64,000 nucleotides of DNA from Candidatus Omnitrophota bacterium (GCA_945877765.1 CAMDWQ010000002.1:14464-78463); one strand, 5' to 3'. Positions 3,035 to 63,307 are shown, counted from the first letter of the stretch. The notes: generated by a model not told the origin, from the sequence alone. Made by a program: numbers and translations.

Positions 3035-4246
3035 ATGCCGCGTTTCCGTTATGTAGCCCACACGCTGGCAGGGCTTCGTATTACGGGTGAAGAAGTTGCC
3101 GTTGATGAGAACGCTCTGGTCAGGGCCCTTCAAAGCCGCGATCTGTTCGTCGCGCGATTAGCCATGACCGGTGAAGAGCTTGGGGGCGAGCTTTCCAAAA
3201 GAGCCCATTCAAAAATACGCGATGAGGATCTTCTTCATTTTGCACGAGAATTAGGGACACTGCTGAACTCAGGAATTCCTTTCGATCATGCGCTAGACTT
3301 GGTCACCGACCAAGTGCGAAGCTTTCAACTGGCTAAAGTCTTAATACAGATTCGTGAGGATGTGAACGCAGGCGTCTCTTTTCATCATGCGATCGAAAAG
3401 CATCCCAAAAGTATCCCCTTTTTGTGGGGGCATCTGATTGAAGCGGGGGAGGCTGTAGGTAATATTGCCGGGGTTTTGGGGCATATAGCCAAGCAGCTTG
3501 AGCAGTCAATCGCGCTAAAAAGAAAAATTATATCGGCTCTTTTGTACCCGGCCATCCTGATTGTTGTTACCATCATCGCAATCTCTGTTTTCCTCCTGTT
3601 TGTCATCCCGCAGTTTAGCCGCGTATTTGAGGTTTTGCACACGAAGCTGCCTTTGATGACGCGCGTCATTTTTTCGATTAGTGCATTCGCGAAGACCTTT
3701 TTTATCCCGAGTTTTGTTGTCATTTTTTTGGCCGCTTATATTTTAAAAAAAAGCACCGAGACCCCGACCGGCCGGCGCACGCTGGATCTATGGCTAGTGA
3801 AGGCGCCCATCATTAGCGAGCTCGTTCGAGACGTTGTGATGGCGCGTATTTGTATTAATCTAGCAGCCGTATTATCCAGTGGTGTCGGGCTGATTTATGG
3901 GCTTGATGTAGTTTCGCGGACATCCGGAAATAAGATTTATGAAGAGATGTTGGAAGGCGTGATGGAGGATGTGCGGGACGGCAGCTCCATGTCGCAGGCA
4001 TTAAGTAAGCGGGCTGTTTTTTCTCCGCTGATGATCCAGATGGTGATCGTGGGAGAAGAAAGTGGGCAATTGCCGGAAATGATTCAGAAAGTAGCTAATT
4101 ATTATGAAGAGAAGGTGGAAACTTTGGTGGCGCGAGTCAGCACTTTATTCGAACCGGTGATGTTGATTTTTTTGGGAGTTGTCGTCGGGTCGATTGTAGT
4201 GGCGCTCATGTTGCCGATTGTCACGATTTCATCGTCTCTTCATTGA
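3035..4246 (+). CDS. Inner-membrane platform protein (GspF/PilC family)
   Basis: 403 aa, two repeated GspF domains with hydrophobic TM segments, placed directly after the ATPase. Confidence 0.88.
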   Translation: MPRFRYVAHTLAGLRITGEEVAVDENALVRALQSRDLFVARLAMTGEELGGELSKRAHSKIRDEDLLHFARELGTLLNSGIPFDHALDLVTDQVRSFQLAKVLIQIREDVNAGVSFHHAIEKHPKSIPFLWGHLIEAGEAVGNIAGVLGHIAKQLEQSIALKRKIISALLYPAILIVVTIIAISVFLLFVIPQFSRVFEVLHTKLPLMTRVIFSISAFAKTFFIPSFVVIFLAAYILKKSTETPTGRRTLDLWLVKAPIISELVRDVVMARICINLAAVLSSGVGLIYGLDVVSRTSGNKIYEEMLEGVMEDVRDGSSMSQALSKRAVFSPLMIQMVIVGEESGQLPEMIQKVANYYEEKVETLVARVSTLFEPVMLIFLGVVVGSIVVALMLPIVTISSSLH

Positions 4247-5655: not shown

Positions 5656-6047
5656 TGTTGACTAGAAATTGTCGCCCGGTCAATGTCACGAAAAATCAAA
5701 ATGGTTTTTCGTTGGTTGAGGTGGTTGTGGCGTTAATTGTTCTTGCCGTGCTTTCTGTGGGTTTGCTTCGAGGTGCAATTTCAGCGCACCGCTCGGTTCC
5801 TGCTCAATTGGATCGCAGCGGCGCTCAAAACCTCGGGCGTGCGATTATTGAGTCTCTTTATGAGGCTGTGCGTCAGGACTGGTGGAATTTAACCGACCGT
5901 CCGCTAAGCGTAGGCACTCCCTTGGGCGCCCCCCGCGCAACGACCGTTGCTGGCAGGACTTACACCTCTGAATATTCGGTCGCCGCTGTCAACTTGGCTG
6001 GAGATCCCGGTCAGGATTATCGCAAGATCGAAGTCACTGTTCGATGA
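5655..6047 (+). CDS. Minor pseudopilin (GspI/PilV-like)
   Basis: '...NQNG|FSLVEVVVALIVLAVLSVGLL'. 130 aa. Confidence 0.7.
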   Translation: MLTRNCRPVNVTKNQNGFSLVEVVVALIVLAVLSVGLLRGAISAHRSVPAQLDRSGAQNLGRAIIESLYEAVRQDWWNLTDRPLSVGTPLGAPRATTVAGRTYTSEYSVAAVNLAGDPGQDYRKIEVTVR

Positions 6048-6610
6048 AAATCAGGGGTACTTCAGGGCACACATTGCTTGAAATTGTAATTGCCAGTGTT
6101 TTGATCGGCATGATTTTTGTGATGATCACCACTTTGTACGCTACTTCCTTGAAATTCTTAAGAGGTGACATGGCCTCAAATGACCTTGATACCTTGTTAG
6201 CTCTTGAGACGATGGCGCGTAACGCTTCGACGTCGACGGACGCCGTCGTGGACATGGGTGGATCACAACTTAAGCTTCGAATCGATACGAATAACCCCTC
6301 CACAGCAACAGCTTTGGATGACCAATGGGTGAGTTATCGCTTTTTAAGGAACGGCGCCGCTTTTGAGCTTAGAAATCGCACGGTGCTGCCTCCCGCAGCT
6401 GCGCCTGCTAATGTGACGGTAGCGGATAGAGAAGTGGTAAGCGGGTTGCCGGTGCTTGGTGGTGCAGGCCAGTCGGGTTTTCAACTTTTAAATCCATCTA
6501 CACCAGAGGGGGCCCCAACGGTTGTACAGATTATGCTGGTAGTTTCGGGCACTGCCAATTCGCAACCGCGCACTTTTTTGACTAGCGTGGCTTTAGAGAG
6601 AGCTAAATGA
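6044..6610 (+). CDS. Minor pseudopilin (GspJ/PilW-like)
   Basis: '...TSG|HTLLEIVIASVLIGMIF'. 188 aa. Confidence 0.65.
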   Translation: MKIRGTSGHTLLEIVIASVLIGMIFVMITTLYATSLKFLRGDMASNDLDTLLALETMARNASTSTDAVVDMGGSQLKLRIDTNNPSTATALDDQWVSYRFLRNGAAFELRNRTVLPPAAAPANVTVADREVVSGLPVLGGAGQSGFQLLNPSTPEGAPTVVQIMLVVSGTANSQPRTFLTSVALERAK

Positions 6611-10911: not shown

Positions 10912-11288
10912 ACTTTAAAAAAATTCAAAAAGAGCAGGATGTATGGTCTCGCAAAAATTTTGGCAACAAAAAAGTTTACCAACCCATTCTTGGCGCGGCG
11001 GAAGAAGTGGGTGAGTTGGCTCATGCGTACTTAAAGATGGAGCAGGGGATACGGGGGACTCGCCAGGAGCATGAGGCTAAGATGAAGGATGCTGTTGGGG
11101 ATACTTGCGTTTTCTTGATGGACTTATGTAATCAGATGGGGTGGCAGTTGGATGAGATTATTGAAAGCACCTGGAACGAGGTAAAAAAGAGAAATTGGAA
11201 AAAAGATACACTTCAAGACACGGAAAAAATAAATCAATACAAATCTAAAACTGCCCGTCGAAAGCCCGGAAAACGGCGGCTTGGATGA
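10908..11288 (+). CDS. MazG-like nucleotide pyrophosphohydrolase domain protein
   Basis: 'LGAAEEVGELAHAY' and 'DAVGDTCVFLMDLCNQMGW' EExxE/DxxD-type motifs. ATGA overlap with the xth stop. Confidence 0.55.
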   Translation: MNFKKIQKEQDVWSRKNFGNKKVYQPILGAAEEVGELAHAYLKMEQGIRGTRQEHEAKMKDAVGDTCVFLMDLCNQMGWQLDEIIESTWNEVKKRNWKKDTLQDTEKINQYKSKTARRKPGKRRLG

Positions 11289-11383
11289 TTCTTCACCAGT
11301 TTATAGCCAAGCGCCCCCTTGTTTCGGGTTTGCAAACGGCGATGATTGGCGCAGCCGCGGCCTCTGCGGTCTATTTCATCGCG

Positions 11384-11412
11384 GGATTTTTCAGTTAGAG
11401 TTGTGGTATAAT
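11384..11412 (+). promoter_or_regulatory. Candidate promoter with extended -10 (TGgTATAAT) upstream of yebC
   Basis: 'tggtataat' at 11404-11412 with a weak -35. About 35 nt upstream of ATG 11448. Confidence 0.35.
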
Positions 11413-24593: not shown

Positions 24594-25484
24594 ATGGCAG
24601 AATTAAAAACAAATTGGAAAAATCTTGTCAAGATGGCAGTGCAGGGGAAACCTGCGAATCCTTTGCGTTTCGGAGAATTTGAAATGGATTGGAAGGGGCA
24701 AGGACACTCGCTGCCGAGTGTTGGGGGGATTACTTACAACGTAAAGGTGGGCGACAGCGCATTTCATTGGCGGGGTGATCATATCGAGCCGGGTGTGTCG
24801 ATGGTGTTGGATGAAGAAAAAAGATCCAGCAAGCAAAATATGGCACTGCAGTTTTTGGCGTGTGTTGGCAATGAGGCGGTGGTTGTCTCGGGTGCCGCCA
24901 AAGGCGCTAGGGGCGTAGTGGTTGGGCATCATGGCGGCGTGGAGCACATGATCGTCGATTTTGACGATAAAACTCTCAACAAACTGACGTATGATGACAA
25001 AATTTTGATTAAGGCTTTCGGGCAAGGCCTCAAGCTTCTGGACGTGCCGGAGGTTTTTGTATACAACCTAGATCCCGGAGTTTTAAAGCCTTGGGGAGTT
25101 AGGATTTCTGGGGGCAAGCTGGAAGTGCCTGTGACAATGACGGTGCCGTCCTCGCTCATGGGCTCAGGGCTTGGGCACGGCGACCCTGCGACCGGAGACT
25201 ACGACATCACCACACAGGATGCCAAAGCGGTAAAACGCTATGGGTTGGATCAGCTGCGTTTTGGAGATTTTGTGGCCATCATGGATGCGGATAATACATT
25301 TGGGCGGCATTATTTTGAGGGAGCTGTTACGATTGGGGTTGTTGCGCACTCGGATAGCTTTCTTTCAGGTCATGGGCCGGGAATTTCAACGCTATTTTCA
25401 TCGAGAACGCCTGCGATTCGTCCTAAGATTTCATATAATGCTAATCTTGCCAATGTGTTAAAAATCGGAAGATATAGGAAATAA
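24594..25484 (+). CDS. Conserved hypothetical protein
   Basis: 296-aa ORF with RBS 'GAGGGAATATG'. No confidently recognised family. Confidence 0.5.
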   Translation: MAELKTNWKNLVKMAVQGKPANPLRFGEFEMDWKGQGHSLPSVGGITYNVKVGDSAFHWRGDHIEPGVSMVLDEEKRSSKQNMALQFLACVGNEAVVVSGAAKGARGVVVGHHGGVEHMIVDFDDKTLNKLTYDDKILIKAFGQGLKLLDVPEVFVYNLDPGVLKPWGVRISGGKLEVPVTMTVPSSLMGSGLGHGDPATGDYDITTQDAKAVKRYGLDQLRFGDFVAIMDADNTFGRHYFEGAVTIGVVAHSDSFLSGHGPGISTLFSSRTPAIRPKISYNANLANVLKIGRYRK

Positions 25485-25493
25485 GTGCTTGGC

Positions 25494-25650
25494 GAGGGGC
25501 TAATTATCTTCTTTTAGCCAACGTTAAATTTGCCCCTCCGAGGCAAATTTAACTCGATAGATAAGAGCTCGCTCGTCCCCATCTACTACGATGGGGACAC
25601 CATGGCCGCTCGCCTTATCTACGCGTCTAAAAGAAGATAATTAGCCCCTC
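25494..25650. repeat. 157-nt structured element bounded by a perfect 24-bp inverted repeat with nested hairpins (intergenic, hypothetical protein -> tgt)
   Basis: Arms 25494-25517 'gaggggctaattatcttcttttag' and 25627-25650, exact reverse complements. Inner 12-bp hairpin (gttaaatttgcc/ggcaaatttaac) and 9-bp hairpin (gtccccatc/gatggggac), flanked by gataag/cttatc. Confidence 0.55.
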
Positions 25651-25671
25651 ACCGAACACTGGAACCAAAAA

Positions 25672-44321: not shown

Positions 44322-46136
44322 GTGGCTATAAAAAAATCCTCTCAGACATTTATCCAAAAATCTTCCGAATGGATACGCAAGCCCAAAAAAAGCGACGCCA
44401 ATTTAAAAGATTATTTTAAAACGTACCAATCTTTTCGCTGGAAGTCAGTTGAAAAAGAGTTTGACTGGCACAAGACGGGCAAGGTCAATATGGTCCACGA
44501 GATCATCGACCGGCACGCGCAAGGTGCTAGAAAAAATAAAGTGGCGCTTTATTTTTGGGATCCCGCATCTACCCAAGTCTATCCTCGGGGACGTGACGAA
44601 AAATATACCTTTTTGGATTTAAAAAAATCCTCCTCTCGTTTTGGGCATGTCCTAAAAAAATGCGGTGTCAAAAAAGGGGATCGCGTCGCTGTGTTTTTGC
44701 CTCGGACGCCGGAGCTTTACATTTCTATCTTGGGAATTCATCGTGTGGGCGCAATTCCGGTGCCGCTTTTCGAGGCATTCATGGAAACTGCAGTGCTGGA
44801 CCGGCTTTCTGACAGCCAGGCGTCTGTTATCGTGACCAACACAGCGCTTAAAGGACGGGTTCCATTTGAAAAATTAAATCATTTGAAGGGCGTTATTTTG
44901 GTGGACGAGTTAGAGGTCAGTAGAAGCGAAAACCAAGACAACGAACCTGCCTGCGATTTCTGCGATGTTTACAATTATTTTGAAGAGATGAAACTAGCAT
45001 CTGAGTCTTTGGAGCCGGTGTGGCTTAACAAGGACGATGGCTTGGTGATCCATTACACTTCCGGATCCACGGGAAAATCCAAAGGAGTTTTGCATCGTCA
45101 GTACGCGATGGTAGGGCACTTGCAGACATCCAAGTGGGTGCTTGATTTGCGCGAAGATGATATTTATTGGTGCACAGCCGATCCGGGCTGGGTGACGGGA
45201 ACTTCTTATGGCATTTACGGGCCCTGGTCGTTGGGGGCTTCGAGCGTCGTTCTGGGGGGGCGGTTTTCCGCTGAGCGCTGGTACGAGGCGATTCAAAAAT
45301 ACAGCGTCACGGTTTGGTACAGCGCGCCGACGGCGTTTCGGATGCTGATGGCTCAAGGTAAAACGCTTCCCAAAAAGTTTAATTTAAAAAGTATCCGCCA
45401 TATCTGTTCGGTGGGTGAGCCGCTTAATCCCGAGGCTCTGCGCTGGATTCGCGCCATTACCGGTGTCGCGCCGCACGAGACATGGTGGATGACGGAGACA
45501 GGGATGCACATTATCTGCAATTTCCGGAGCCTTGATTTTAAATTAGGCGCCACGGGCCGGCCTTTTCCGGGGACTTACGCGAGCGTTGTTGACGACAAGG
45601 GGAAAGAAGTCGCGCCCAACACGCTGGGAAATCTCGTGGTCAAAACCGGCTGGCCATCCTTGATGAAAGAGATTTGGAAAAATAAAGCGAAGTTTGACGA
45701 ATATTTTGAATTGAAGGGCTGGTACAAGAGCGGGGATTCCGCCTACAAGGACAAAGATGGTTTTATTTGGTTTGCTGGACGCGTGGATGATGTGATCAAG
45801 ACGGCGGGTGAGCGCGTGGGGCCGTTTGAGGTCGAGAGCGCTCTTATTCAGCACCCGGCCGTGGCGGAGGCTGGCGTCATCGGAAAACCAGATCAAGTGC
45901 GCGGGCACATTATCAAGGCGTTTATCAGCTTGCGTCCGGGATTTTCACCCTCAGATCATTTAAAAGCAGAAATTGCTGATTTTGTGAAAAAAAATCTCGC
46001 GGCACACGCTGCCCCGCGTGAAATTGATTTTCGTGACAGCATCCCCAAGACTCGCTCGGGGAAAATCATGCGGCGCGTATTGAGGGCGTGGGACCAGGGG
46101 TTGCCGGTGGGAGATGTTAGTACAATGGACGAATAG
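44322..46136 (+). CDS. Acetyl-CoA synthetase-like AMP-forming acyl-CoA ligase
   Basis: 'IHYTSGSTGKSKGV', 'YWCTADPGWVTGTSYGIYGP', 'SGDSAYKDKDGFIWFAGRVDDVIK', C-terminal 'RSGKIMRR'. Confidence 0.85.
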   Translation: MAIKKSSQTFIQKSSEWIRKPKKSDANLKDYFKTYQSFRWKSVEKEFDWHKTGKVNMVHEIIDRHAQGARKNKVALYFWDPASTQVYPRGRDEKYTFLDLKKSSSRFGHVLKKCGVKKGDRVAVFLPRTPELYISILGIHRVGAIPVPLFEAFMETAVLDRLSDSQASVIVTNTALKGRVPFEKLNHLKGVILVDELEVSRSENQDNEPACDFCDVYNYFEEMKLASESLEPVWLNKDDGLVIHYTSGSTGKSKGVLHRQYAMVGHLQTSKWVLDLREDDIYWCTADPGWVTGTSYGIYGPWSLGASSVVLGGRFSAERWYEAIQKYSVTVWYSAPTAFRMLMAQGKTLPKKFNLKSIRHICSVGEPLNPEALRWIRAITGVAPHETWWMTETGMHIICNFRSLDFKLGATGRPFPGTYASVVDDKGKEVAPNTLGNLVVKTGWPSLMKEIWKNKAKFDEYFELKGWYKSGDSAYKDKDGFIWFAGRVDDVIKTAGERVGPFEVESALIQHPAVAEAGVIGKPDQVRGHIIKAFISLRPGFSPSDHLKAEIADFVKKNLAAHAAPREIDFRDSIPKTRSGKIMRRVLRAWDQGLPVGDVSTMDE

Positions 46137-46142
46137 CGTCAT

Positions 46143-46289
46143 GGCGGGAGGTTGTTTATTTTTGCAGCGAATGCATGCGACGCGCAGGCTGCTATGTGTA
46201 AATTTTTTTACAGCCTGAAGCTCGACGAAAGTCCCAAGCCCCGTCGACGCGGAGCGGCAATTTGCGGAAAAAATAAACAACCTCCCGCC
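46143..46289. repeat. 147-nt structured element bounded by a 21-bp perfect inverted repeat (intergenic, after acyl-CoA ligase)
   Basis: Arms 46143-46163 'ggcgggaggttgtttattttt' and 46269-46289 'aaaaataaacaacctcccgcc'. Internal caggctg/cagcctg hairpin and cgtcgacg palindrome. Confidence 0.5.
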
Positions 46290-46325
46290 CACACCTATTT
46301 TTAGACTATTACACAAAAGGAGACT

Positions 46326-46586
46326 GTGATGTTCGAGCAAATTAAAGGAATGGCGGGGAAATTTCAGATGATGCAGAAAATGATGCAGGATGAGGATTTT
46401 AAGGCGTTTGTTTCCAATCCTAAAATTCAGGCGCTGTTTGGGGATCCTGAGTTTAAGGAAATTGCAAAAACGCGCGATTTTAGTAAGATCCTTACCAACC
46501 CTAAATTTTCAGGTCTGATGAAGGACCCCGAAATCGCGTCGTTGGTGGCCAAGCTCAACCCTAAAAAATTCATTCCCACCCCATGA
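46326..46586 (+). CDS. Small hypothetical protein with internal repeats
   Basis: 86 aa with repeated 'DPEFKEI / NPKFSGL / DPEIASL' units. RBS 'AAAGGAGAC'. Confidence 0.4.
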   Translation: MMFEQIKGMAGKFQMMQKMMQDEDFKAFVSNPKIQALFGDPEFKEIAKTRDFSKILTNPKFSGLMKDPEIASLVAKLNPKKFIPTP

Positions 46587-49794: not shown

Positions 49795-49874
49795 GACATG
49801 CACGACAAAGCTAATTATAATGAACACTTCGCGGATAAAATAGCACAGATAATACAGAGCAGTGTCAGAGTAGT

Positions 49875-49944
49875 GTCATCCCCGAATTTTCTTATCGGGG
49901 ATCATGTATTAGTTTGATTCCCGATTAAAACTTTCGGGAATGAC
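49875..49944 (+). repeat. Bipartite palindromic repeat unit, copy A (upstream of argC)
   Basis: 'gtcatccccga-N10-tcggggatcatg...tgattcccga-N10-tcgggaatgac'. Ends 13 nt before ATG 49958, with GGGAG in between. Confidence 0.8.
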
Positions 49945-49957
49945 GATTGGGAGCGGA

Positions 49958-52207: not shown

Positions 52208-52245
52208 TTATCAGGGCGCTGTTTCGTTTGGACACGAAATAGGTT

Positions 52246-52275
52246 TGATCCCCGATTAAAGATTTCGGGGATGAC
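52246..52275 (-). repeat. Half-copy (single hairpin) of the palindromic repeat, copy B, inverted orientation (upstream of argB)
   Basis: 'tgatccccgattaaagatttcggggatgac'. The flanking 'gatgacactgtgctgacatt' mirrors the 5' flank of copy A. Confidence 0.65.
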
Positions 52276-52303
52276 ACTGTGCTGACATTGGAGAGGGTAA
52301 ACC

Positions 52304-55404: not shown

Positions 55405-55415
55405 TCACACAAGGT

Positions 55416-55486
55416 GTCATCCCCGAGATCATTAATCGGGGATCATGTCTTAAGTTTGATTCCCGATAAAAAAATTCGGGAATGAC
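55416..55486 (+). repeat. Palindromic repeat unit, copy C1 (tandem pair upstream of argG)
   Basis: 71-nt unit matching the family consensus. Separated from C2 by 12 nt. Confidence 0.8.
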
Positions 55487-55498
55487 GTAGAATGGTAT

Positions 55499-55568
55499 GT
55501 CATCCCCGAAATCTTTTATCGGGGATCATGTGTAGGTTTGATTCCCGATTAAAACTTTCGGGAATGAC
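55499..55568 (+). repeat. Palindromic repeat unit, copy C2
   Basis: 70-nt unit. Ends 13 nt before ATG 55582, with GGGAGAG in between. Confidence 0.8.
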
Positions 55569-55581
55569 ATTGGGAGAGAAA

Positions 55582-56751
55582 ATGAAAAAAATTGTTCTAG
55601 CATATTCCGGCGGTTTAGACACTTCGGTCGCGATTAAGTGGCTCAAAGACAAAGGCTATGAAGTGATCGCCTACATGGCGGATGTGGGTCAAGAAAAAAC
55701 CACCACCGCGGCGATTGCGCGCGCGAAAAAAGCCGGCGCCTCCAAAGTTGTCGTGAAGGATCTCAAAAAGAAATTTGTGACGGACTATGTATGGCCGGCG
55801 CTAAAGGCCGGAGCTGTTTACGAAGGCCGTTACACGCTAGCCACCGCCTTGTCACGTCCCTGTATTGCGGCCGAACAAGTCGCGGTTGCACACGCCGAAA
55901 AGGCCACCGCAGTCGGTCACGGCTGTACCGGGAAGGGCAACGATCAGGTACGCTTTGAGGTCACGATCCAAGCGCTCGATAGCTCACTTGAGATTTTAGC
56001 GCCTTTGCGCGAATGGGAGTTTAAGTCGCGCGATGAGGAAATTGATTACGCGATCAAGCACCGGATTCCTATTGACGTCACGAAGAAAAGCTCGTATTCC
56101 ATCGACAAGAACGTGTGGGGCGTGTCGGTCGAGTCTGGCGTTCTCGAAAATCCTAATATAGAACCGCCGCAGGATTCATTCCAGTGGACGCGCGGCGCCG
56201 AAAAAAGAAATCTTAAAGATCGCGTTGTTACGATCGAATTCAACAAAGGTATCCCCGTTGGCCTCGACGGCAAAAAGCTCGGGCCGCTTGAGCTCATCGC
56301 CAAACTCAATGATACCGGGGCGCAATACGGCATCGGCCGCATGGACATGATCGAAAATCGTCTCGTCGGCATCAAATCCCGCGAGACATACGAAGCGCCG
56401 GCCGCGACGATTCTGATGCTTGCACACGCGGATCTTGAGAGCCTCGTGCTTGACCGCGAACTTTTGCATTACAAGCAGGGGATTTCGCAGAAGTACGCAG
56501 ATCTTGTGTATTACGGTCTGTGGTTTACGCCAATGCGTGAGGCGCTGGACGCGTTCGTTGAAACCACGCAGAAAAAAGTCACTGGCAAAGTCCGTGTGCG
56601 CCTGCGCAAATTCAGCGCGAACATTGTCGGCCGCACCTCACCGTTTTCGCGTTATAACGAGAACCTGGCGACGTACACCGCCAAGGATACGTTTGATCAC
56701 CGGCTCGCCAAGGGGTTCATCGACCTTTGGGCTCTGCCTTACAGGAAATGA
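55582..56751 (+). CDS. argG: Argininosuccinate synthase
   Basis: 'KIVLAYSGGLDTSV' PP-loop and 'GCTGKGNDQVRFE'. The longer ORF from 55492 would read through the repeats. Confidence 0.93.
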   Translation: MKKIVLAYSGGLDTSVAIKWLKDKGYEVIAYMADVGQEKTTTAAIARAKKAGASKVVVKDLKKKFVTDYVWPALKAGAVYEGRYTLATALSRPCIAAEQVAVAHAEKATAVGHGCTGKGNDQVRFEVTIQALDSSLEILAPLREWEFKSRDEEIDYAIKHRIPIDVTKKSSYSIDKNVWGVSVESGVLENPNIEPPQDSFQWTRGAEKRNLKDRVVTIEFNKGIPVGLDGKKLGPLELIAKLNDTGAQYGIGRMDMIENRLVGIKSRETYEAPAATILMLAHADLESLVLDRELLHYKQGISQKYADLVYYGLWFTPMREALDAFVETTQKKVTGKVRVRLRKFSANIVGRTSPFSRYNENLATYTAKDTFDHRLAKGFIDLWALPYRK

Positions 56752-56759
56752 CGCGAAGC

Positions 56760-56830
56760 GTCATCCCCGAAATATTTAATCGGGGATCATGTGTTGGGTT
56801 TGATTCCCGATAAAAACTTTCGGGAATGAC
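56760..56830 (+). repeat. Palindromic repeat unit, copy D (upstream of argH)
   Basis: 71-nt unit. The additional 7-bp palindrome atgacgc/gcgtcat spans the argG stop codon. Confidence 0.8.
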
Positions 56831-58223: not shown

Positions 58224-58286
58224 GTCATTCCCAAATTTTTTATCGGGAATCAAACTTGATCCCCGATTAAAGATTTCGGGGATGAC
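58224..58286 (-). repeat. Palindromic repeat unit, copy E, inverted orientation (upstream of lysA)
   Basis: 'gtcattccc-aaattttttatcgggaatcaaac ttgatccccgattaaagatttcggggatgac' is the reverse complement of the consensus. Confidence 0.78.
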
Positions 58287-58299
58287 ACTCGAGGAGTTT

Positions 58300-62056: not shown

Positions 62057-63274
62057 ATGACACATCCTTTTTTTCTTGAAGAATCTAATCGCCTGAAAGC
62101 ACTGCCTCCGTATCTTTTTCTCGAGATTGACCGCGCCAAACGGCGGGCGATTGAAAAAGGGGTCAAAGTGATTGATTTCGGCATTGGCGATCCTGATCAG
62201 CCAACACCCAAATATATTCTGGATGTCATGCAGCGCGTGGTCAAAGACCCCAAAAATCATCATTATCCTCTGGACCGCGGAAGCCACGCCTTTCGGTTGG
62301 CGGCATCCGTATGGTTAAAAAAACGATTTGGAAGCTATTTTGACCCGGACACTGAAATTTTGCCGCTCATTGGCTCGAAGGAAGGGATTGCTCATCTGCC
62401 ATTAGCCTTCATCAATCCCGGTGATGTCGTGCTGGTTCCTGATCCTTGTTATCCGCCGTACAAAAGCGGCACATTGTTTGCCGGCGGGCACGCGCATCTT
62501 ATGCCGCTGAAGGAAGAAAACGCATTTCTGCCAGATTTTGAAGCGGTCCCCGCAGAAGTTTTAAAAAAATCAAAAATAATTTTTGTAAACTACCCCAATA
62601 ATCCCACGGGTGCTGTAGCGACGCGCCCCTTTTACGAGAAGCTGGTCAAGTGGGCACACACACACAAAATCCTCATTGCCTCGGATCTGGCTTATTCGGA
62701 GGTATTTTTTACAAAAGAAAAACCGCTGAGCATTTTTGAAGTTCCGGGGGCCAGAGAGGTAGCGATTGAATTTCACTCTCTCTCAAAGACTTGTAATATG
62801 ACTGGCTGGCGGATTGGTTTTGCCGTTGGAAGAGCCGAAGCGATTTCTTCGCTCTTGCGGGTGAAATCCAACCTTGATTCGGGTGTTTTTACCGCGATAC
62901 AAATGACCGCGATTGAGGCGCTCAAAAATAGTTTTGGGTTTTCCAAGAAAACCAACATCATGTATCGCCGCCGCCGCGATCTTTTGGTGGCTGGCTTAAA
63001 AGAGCTGGGTTTCCCCATAAAACCCAATCAGGCCTCCTTTTATTTGTTTACTCGCCTTCCGGCGGGGTCAACGGATTCTACTACCTATTGTAAAAATCTT
63101 TTGGAGAAAACGGGCATTGTCGCAACGCCTGGAGTGGGCTTTGGAGCGCCGGGCGAGGGCTATATTCGTTTTACGTTGACGGTGCCAGAAGCTGAAATTC
63201 GCGAAGCCATCATACGGATGAAAAAATATTACGCAGTGTCATCCCCGAAATCTTTAATCGGGGATCATGTCTAG
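62057..63274 (+). CDS. dapL: LL-diaminopimelate aminotransferase-like class I aminotransferase (DapL-type); last 12 codons + stop lie inside repeat copy F
   Basis: 'SKEGIAHLPLAFINPGD', 'FVNYPNNPTG', PLP-Lys 'SLSKTCNMTGWRIG'. Contiguous with dapB/dapA/dapF/lysA. C-terminal 'VSSPKSLIGDHV*' is encoded by 'gtgtcatccccgaaatctttaatcggggatcatgtctag'. Confidence 0.78.
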   Translation: MTHPFFLEESNRLKALPPYLFLEIDRAKRRAIEKGVKVIDFGIGDPDQPTPKYILDVMQRVVKDPKNHHYPLDRGSHAFRLAASVWLKKRFGSYFDPDTEILPLIGSKEGIAHLPLAFINPGDVVLVPDPCYPPYKSGTLFAGGHAHLMPLKEENAFLPDFEAVPAEVLKKSKIIFVNYPNNPTGAVATRPFYEKLVKWAHTHKILIASDLAYSEVFFTKEKPLSIFEVPGAREVAIEFHSLSKTCNMTGWRIGFAVGRAEAISSLLRVKSNLDSGVFTAIQMTAIEALKNSFGFSKKTNIMYRRRRDLLVAGLKELGFPIKPNQASFYLFTRLPAGSTDSTTYCKNLLEKTGIVATPGVGFGAPGEGYIRFTLTVPEAEIREAIIRMKKYYAVSSPKSLIGDHV

Positions 63275-63307
63275 GTTTGATTCCCGATAAGTACTTTCGG
63301 GAATGAC
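63238..63307 (+). repeat. Palindromic repeat unit, copy F (overlaps dapL 3' end, upstream of folK)
   Basis: 70-nt unit matching the consensus. Confidence 0.8.

Follow-up and report, generated by a model that had tools for sequence, protein, structure and literature searches.

Structure of the palindromic segment downstream of acs

A palindromic segment of 147 bp lies between two co-directional genes at positions 46143 to 46289 of the Candidatus Omnitrophota DNA analysed here (the window, a stretch of 64,000 nucleotides), and it raises the question of where such a segment comes from and what it may do to the genes on either side. The segment, referred to below as B, is assigned to neither strand. 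It begins 6 nt past the stop codon of acs (44322..46136, plus strand), whose product carries the Pfam domains AMP-binding and AMP-binding_C and whose homologues are named acetate--CoA ligase in Candidatus Omnitrophota; this is the gene that an earlier note on the same DNA had described as an upstream acyl-CoA ligase. It ends 39 nt before a gene for an 85-aa, STI1/HOP DP-like protein (46329..46586, plus strand), which directly follows acs in relatives and keeps its own AAGGAG ribosome-binding site (46317-46322) intact. The window is extremely gene-dense, with nearly all genes on the plus strand and with stop and start codons that often overlap. No transposase, integrase or RAYT was found in a Pfam scan of the window ORFs of at least 90 aa, and rRNA is absent from the window. 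For the yajC, secDF, succinate dehydrogenase and ribosomal genes the identification comes from contig annotations alone.

The earlier note had reported a perfect inverted repeat of 21 bp, a caggctg/cagcctg hairpin and a cgtcgacg palindrome, and all three are present. The first 21 nt of the left arm (46143..46172), GGCGGGAGGTTGTTTATTTTT at 46143-46163, and the last 21 nt of the right arm (46260..46289), AAAAATAAACAACCTCCCGCC at 46269-46289, are exact complements; the repeat stretches to 30 nt at 90% (46143-46172 / 46260-46289), and 87 nt separate the arms, neither of which is assigned to a strand. On the gene-sense strand the left arm is G/T-rich. The predicted fold is a Y-shaped three-way junction, closed in the plus-strand RNA by a helix in which a 3x3 internal loop separates 21 perfect pairs from about 11 more. 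Two hairpins of the plus strand, located from the sequence and the minimum-free-energy fold, occupy the interior. Inner hairpin 1 (46185..46217) has the stems CAGGCTG and CAGCCTG (46185-46191 / 46211-46217), and inner hairpin 2 (46222..46247) consists of TCGACG, a 14-nt loop and CGTCGA. The palindrome CGTCGACG (46242-46249) lies for most of its length inside inner hairpin 2, where its CGTCGA is predicted to pair with TCGACG at 46222-46227. The T-rich tract that had been noticed shortly past the right arm is TATTTTT (46296..46302, plus strand); it starts 6 nt past that arm, and its T-run stands 6-8 nt from the stem base.

RNA folding, which the earlier note had proposed as a check, gave -73.6 kcal/mol for the plus strand (z = -6.8), and 0 of 200 shuffles were as stable. 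The minus-strand RNA reached -72.2 kcal/mol (z = -6.0) and the single-stranded DNA z = -6.9; these folds are about as stable as that of the plus strand, so the structure carries no strand-specific signal. Among 2129 sliding windows of 150 nt along the 64 kb, the one at B was the most stable. The longest perfect inverted-repeat arms in the window, for arms at most 400 nt apart, measure 24 nt (element A, discussed below), 21 nt (B) and then 12 nt, and in 100 Markov-1 random sequences such arms never exceeded 17 nt. The inverted repeat of B is far beyond chance. B has no credible coding capacity: it offers merely stop-free stretches of about 50 codons that lack a ribosome-binding site, and no gene is called within it in any contig.

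A chimeric inverted repeat produced during assembly or amplification could look much the same, and several short contigs (L004, L008, L009) do begin or end in or beside B. Such an artefact is effectively refuted by the seven contigs in which B is internal, which come from differing samples and assemblers. Six of these contigs, all of the same species and independent of one another, have B letter for letter; the seventh (L002) has a single T->G at 46172, which disrupts one inner pair and is uncompensated, and an eighth contig holds just the right end of B. The contigs that carry B derive from ENA megahit assemblies, Logan and an NCBI MAG. The site is filled in 7/7 same-species contigs that span it, and neither B nor element A shows presence/absence polymorphism within the species, every spanning contig being filled. 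B is fixed in its host species.

An insertion gained in one lineage

The origin of B was approached through the acs loci of the four closest relatives, whose Acs proteins are 80-84% identical and whose acs DNA is 74-81% identical over the aligned parts. All four share the gene order of a menaquinone-biosynthesis (mqn) gene, acs and an 84-aa gene. The distance from the acs stop codon to the next start codon is 22 nt in L026, 46 nt in L027, 18 nt in L029 and 13 nt in L047, against 192 nt in the window. The C-terminus of Acs is intact, reading STMDE* in the window and STMEE* in the relatives. When B is excised, CGTCAT and 39 nt are left, an ordinary spacer for the group. Because relatives with the same gene order have spacers of 13-46 nt rather than 192 nt, B is by parsimony a lineage-specific insertion, gained in the lineage of the window species; this absence from all of the closest relatives is a point that goes beyond the earlier note. 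The TATTTTT stretch may have arrived together with B, since the relatives do not have this tract.

The absence of B from all of the closest relatives points to selfish or mobile DNA rather than to a conserved regulatory RNA. The explanation that we favour, and hold to be somewhat better than evenly probable, is that B is a lineage-specific, non-coding palindromic insertion of 147 bp, a foldback- or MITE-like selfish hairpin or the relic of one, which became fixed in the spacer of the acs operon. It would have arrived by a copy-and-paste or a hairpin-mediated DNA process and not by gradual evolution.

B might instead have been made or enlarged on the spot by replication errors that form palindromes, such as intrastrand template switching or snap-back synthesis, with no transposition involved. 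Such a local genesis, which we regard as distinctly unlikely, would account for the unique sequence of each hairpin, and A, B and the hairpins E2-E4 of the clade (see below) are indeed each unique. Against it, an ancestral spacer of 13-46 nt is too short to supply the approximately 70 nt of one arm plus core, so that most of B must have come from elsewhere.

Further copies of B were sought at several scales. No second copy of a B arm occurs in the 64-kb window with up to 3 mismatches, and sensitive BLAST with the whole of B had no other match across about 83 kb, made up of the window and about 19 kb from the flanking contigs L060 and L063; a second copy of element A was likewise absent from these 83 kb. 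The extension of about 10 kb on each side of the window contains no further long inverted repeats. A scan of one genome per GTDB species for an 18-mer of the B arm yielded 15 single-arm chance matches, where about 17 were expected by our own estimate, in a collection that evidently lacks the source genome, since the locus of B itself gave no match. The same 18-mer had 11 matches in JGI metagenomes, which on inspection were non-palindromic and due to chance, and one chance match in IMG/VR. This probe comes from the outer arm, which by analogy with E1 may be site-specific, so copies of the inner core could escape it. BLAST of B against plasmids and phages gave no match, and scans of viral contigs with the A arm and the E1 core gave 0 matches. 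Finally, B, A and the E1 core were translated in their stop-free frames and joined into pseudo-proteins, by which spurious ORFs called in other copies should be recognised; these matched none of 5.8 billion proteins.

Comparison with described families

Several features of B are those by which MITEs are recognised: it measures 147 bp (less than about 500 bp), contains no transposase gene, ends in terminal inverted repeats, and has a filled site in one species and orthologous empty sites of 13-46 nt in four relatives. A direct target-site duplication is missing: the flanks of B read GCGTCAT and CACACCT, and no direct repeat of 2 bp or more abuts its ends. The MITEs of the Correia/CREE type of Neisseria and ERIC are, like B, about 100-200 bp long and non-coding, with terminal inverted repeats of 20-30 bp; they also lie in intergenic regions by gene ends, form a stem-loop when co-transcribed and vary in presence among related genomes (PMC10969869). 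B differs from them in that it lacks a target-site duplication, that neither a second copy nor a matching transposase was found, that its interior consists of two further hairpins, and that no promoter or IHF motif was detected.

The intervening sequences (IVS) of bacterial 23S rRNA resemble B in being sporadic, sequence-diverse hairpin insertions of single or low copy number, whose complementary ends pair into a stem of about 28 bp (PMC4990558). However, IVS occupy rRNA helices 9, 25 or 45 rather than spacers of mRNA, and some contain an ORF (PMC4990558); B, which lies between two protein-coding genes and not in a 23S rRNA helix, was rejected as an IVS. B works like a MITE or an IVS, yet it cannot be counted as a member of either family, and is best named a small palindromic intergenic insertion DNA.

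REPINs share with B an intergenic position, the formation of hairpins, the lack of a target-site duplication and a selfish nature, which for B is the probable reading, and both can take a clover shape as well as that of a single long hairpin (PMC3116915). They differ in that the arms of B are not REP palindromes, its inner hairpins are unrelated to each other, it is not multi-copy in the data, and no RAYT was found; with a single copy and no Y1 transposase in the window, B was also set aside as a REPIN or REP element. Two other structured DNAs or RNAs were considered and rejected. As an attC site B fails, since its GTTGTTT / AAACAAC do not follow the RYYYAAC ... GTTRRRY consensus and its neighbours are housekeeping genes, not cassettes. 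As a three-way junction of the hammerhead type it lacks the core motifs CUGANGA/GAAA, and Rfam was negative.

Rickettsia palindromic elements (RPE) are palindromic insertions of 100-150 bp in compact genomes, which sometimes lie in frame inside genes. A hairpin in the signal-peptide region of spoIID in a relative of the window species (described below) resembles them, but RPE form recognisable multi-copy sequence families and B is unique. A literature search on Omnitrophota together with inverted or palindromic repeats returned nothing relevant.

That B could be a small structured RNA gene, whether 6S-like, Y-RNA-like or another ncRNA, or a member of a described RNA family, is suggested by its highly stable fold and by the long closing helix formed from its 5' and 3' ends. 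We consider this very improbable. At Rfam gathering thresholds there were 0 matches in the whole window, and a permissive search around B gave only matches of E > 5, to eukaryotic, microRNA and Burkholderia sRNA families that have no bearing on B, the best scoring 12-16 bits against thresholds of 40-93. ARAGORN detected no tRNA or tmRNA. Neither a sigma-70-like promoter nor a canonical terminator flanks B, B is absent from the syntenic site in all relatives, and its look-alike A shares no sequence with it.

Other hairpin insertions in the clade

The architecture of B recurs in element A (25484..25660, no strand assigned), which fills the DUF4438-tgt spacer with arms of 34 nt at 91%, 24 nt of them perfect. 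Like B it folds into a long closing stem with two inner hairpins (z = -12.8 and -10.7 on the two strands), in agreement with the earlier note, which had seen the same architecture in an element at 25.5 kb; as also stated there, the two sequences differ, and BLAST found no similarity between them. The 187-nt DUF4438-tgt spacer of the window has counterparts of 4 nt (L045) and 15 nt (L046), and by this comparison A is an insertion as well. It is fixed within the species, each spanning contig being filled. A nearby 'GGAA' was examined as a target-site duplication of A and rejected, as it would imply an impossible gene fusion.

The genome represented by L042/L048 carries in the same DUF4438-tgt site a spacer of 372 nt with a different hairpin of about 207 nt and a second, GC-rich hairpin. 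Homology between A and the L048 hairpin was rejected, the alignment showing none past the coding flank. The L048 genome has no fewer than four other hairpin insertions of unrelated sequence, of which one is present twice; they include a 162-nt hairpin at the ruvA/ruvB junction and another at the ruvB/spoIID junction. In the window and in L046 both of these gene pairs overlap by 4 nt, ruvA and ruvB through ATGA, and the sites are empty. Conversely, the acs spacer of the L042/L048 genome is itself empty. As the filled sites differ by genome, each species has a different set of such insertions. When A, B and E1-E4 were all compared with one another by BLAST, no cross-similarity appeared. The earlier suggestion of a class of structured intergenic elements bounded by inverted repeats is borne out by these L048 hairpins and by a REPIN-like family in the window, and such a class is present in the clade.

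The hairpin present in two copies is E1. Its core of 161 nt occurs twice in L048, 7 kb apart and 99% identical (3864-4024 and 10924-11084), in the DUF4438-tgt spacer and in the VIT1-yebC spacer (L048 3850-4038 and 10901-11107; ERZ3430525 NODE_2177). A MAG assembly made independently reproduces the second copy together with its flanks. Three other contigs end within one E1 copy, and the ends of two contigs coincide exactly with the SNP that distinguishes the copies, as repeats predict. Because the E1 core has been copied between loci at 99% identity, at least part of the hairpin class is mobile, and this copying speaks against a purely local genesis of the hairpins.

The flanks of E1 are unrelated between the two copies, yet in each a perfect 14-bp inverted repeat abuts the core: TGGAGCCGCTTAGT/ACTAAGCGGCTCCA at one site and AGACTCGTTTATTC/GAATAAACGAGTCT at the other, with an imperfect continuation to 25-45 bp. 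The palindromic flanks place the core exactly at the dyad of a site-specific palindrome, an arrangement that can also be claimed for palindromes made locally. Two routes to it are possible. The core may insert at the tips of existing hairpins; insertion into palindromic targets has been shown for REP-targeting IS elements (PMC1525189), and IVS elements replace helix tetraloops (PMC4990558), so that their reported position at the tip of an existing helix resembles that of the E1 core. Alternatively, one flank may be copied in inverted orientation during or after insertion.

These observations allow a broader proposal, which would cover A, B and the L048 hairpins alike: an undescribed palindromic insertion DNA of Omnitrophota whose core is copied to a new site and comes to lie at the dyad of a site-specific palindrome. 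We advance it with little confidence. This arrangement would arise either by the targeting of existing hairpin tips or by inverted flank copying, the latter giving palindromes that extend themselves, and by either route the outcome would be multilayer hairpins that are mostly unique in sequence and lack direct target duplications, and that can sit in frame in genes or keep translational coupling. The possibility that cores lie at the dyad of site-specific palindromes, or grow by inverted flank copying, is drawn from one two-copy family in a relative.

The L048 hairpin at the ruvA/ruvB junction lies at 6023-6197, with ATGA at both ends and the ruvB start codon inside its right arm. Its left arm carries GAAGCCAT, which in 7/8 positions is the inverted complement of ATGACTTC, the start of ruvB within the right arm; this may be taken as a trace of local palindrome formation. 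A plain insertion after codon 4 of an older ruvB start, with the old start ATGAATTCTCCTA followed in frame by CAAAAGAT, would be equally consistent with the sequence. Between the old start and the new ATGA the frame stays open for 56 codons, across the hairpin, which suggests that the hairpin may preserve translational coupling. The spoIID hairpin (L048 7263-7384) is apparently in frame inside the region that codes for the signal peptide: 58 residues precede the conserved RVLV motif instead of 26, and the outer 18 nt of the arms match in 17/18 positions, start codon included.

For B itself, the preferred reading remains that of a selfish hairpin or its relic. If it is correct, compact and gene-dense Omnitrophota genomes would have been colonised by hairpin insertions that differ between species and lodge between a stop codon and a ribosome-binding site. 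The matter bears on the unsolved question of how hairpin insertions in single copy, the rRNA IVS elements among them, originate, and E1, with its identical core and unrelated palindromic flanks, provides a concrete handle on how hairpins arise. Hairpins of this kind also affect annotation: they lead to gene starts being over-called and to breaks in the contigs of MAGs. Same-species contigs often start or end in or beside hairpins: L004, L008 and L009 near B, L055 and L058 inside element A, and L060 inside the REPIN-like unit at 63.26 kb.

Possible effects on the acs operon

Since the genes on either side of it point the same way and adjoin each other in relatives, B is probably transcribed as part of the acs operon mRNA. 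If so, a double-stranded RNA helix of 21-30 bp would have been dropped into a polycistronic mRNA, and a helix of this length satisfies the length need of RNase III. B would be a likely substrate of this enzyme or a barrier to 3' exonucleases, and cleavage or an exonuclease block at this point could uncouple the stability or expression of acs from that of the downstream genes. Comparable processing has been described for other hairpin insertions: RNase III cuts Correia transcripts at their paired terminal repeats (PMC10969869), and it cuts IVS, whose occurrence is sporadic and whose origin is unknown, at a 28-bp terminal stem (PMC4990558).

The earlier note had proposed that B may function as a large terminator. 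Intrinsic terminators have a stem of about 5-12 bp, a loop of 3-8 nt and a U-tract immediately after the stem. B shares with Rho-independent terminators, and with the terminator-like mobile element SPRITE of pneumococcus (PMC10969869), a GC-rich stem base, a T-run some bases later and a position right after a stop codon, but it differs from them in its helix of 21-30 bp enclosing 87 nt. A consensus scan for intrinsic terminators flags nothing at B, the T-run standing about 6-8 nt from this stem, and canonical terminator-like sites are not enriched in the region (4 found, 5.6 expected). The ancestral acs spacer would have held no terminator, because the relatives run both genes together with 13-46 nt between them. 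A terminator role of B is weakly supported, and transcription termination there would be at best partial.

More broadly, B could be mainly a functional cis-acting RNA under selection (a large terminator or attenuator, a stabiliser of the acs 3' end or an RNase III site), with its origin a secondary matter. This we judge unlikely, although a number of observations would suit it: the extreme stability of the fold with its 21 perfect pairs, the fixation in all same-species contigs that span the site, the placement exactly between the stop codon and the next ribosome-binding site, and a T-rich arm that comes first on the sense strand in A, B and E1a/E1b alike. A weak stem extension of 4 bp would, moreover, bring the U-run of the downstream TATTTTT beside the helix. 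On the other hand, the relatives manage with their short spacers and no hairpin, B has no homologues and hence no support from covariation, and the U-tract stands off the strong stem, whose dimensions and loop are far from the geometry of an intrinsic terminator. Both strands and the single-stranded DNA fold about alike, with no strand-specific G-U signature, and the sole SNP in the population breaks a pair and is uncompensated.

REPIN-like family and minor observations in the window

A multi-copy REPIN/REP-like family is found at 49874-49945, 52240-52276 (a half unit), 55415-55568 (two tandem units), 56760-56830, 58224-58287 (minus orientation) and 63237-63307. The unit of 72-82 nt forms two small hairpins, GTCATCCCCGA-N9-TCGGGGATCATG and GATTCCCGA-N9-TCGGGAATGAC, or alternatively a single long one. 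Every copy occupies a spacer within the rpsI/arg/dap gene string, and 5/6 share the same orientation, ending just ahead of the GGGAG ribosome-binding site of the next gene. No member of the family was found in the loci of the relatives, and no RAYT gene in the window. Palindromic flanks were not found around the REPIN-like units of the window, this feature being specific to E1. The longest ORF for argininosuccinate synthase (55492-56751) begins inside the REPIN-like array, and its Pfam match starts from residue 33; the true start is probably just after 55570.

Three further observations concern genes. Some Omnitrophota homologues of Acs are about 970 aa long and have intein/LAGLIDADG domains (PF14890, PF14528), another kind of selfish insertion. 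An ORF of 1804 aa at 34058-39472 matches no Pfam family at E < 1e-5. Of a VIT1-family gene just the last ~33 codons (GLQTAMIGAAAASAVYFIAGFFS*) are present, at 11300-11398, and a promoter-like site for yebC, TGnTATAAT, follows immediately; since the full gene of 228 aa is present in L048, this stretch looks like a gene remnant.
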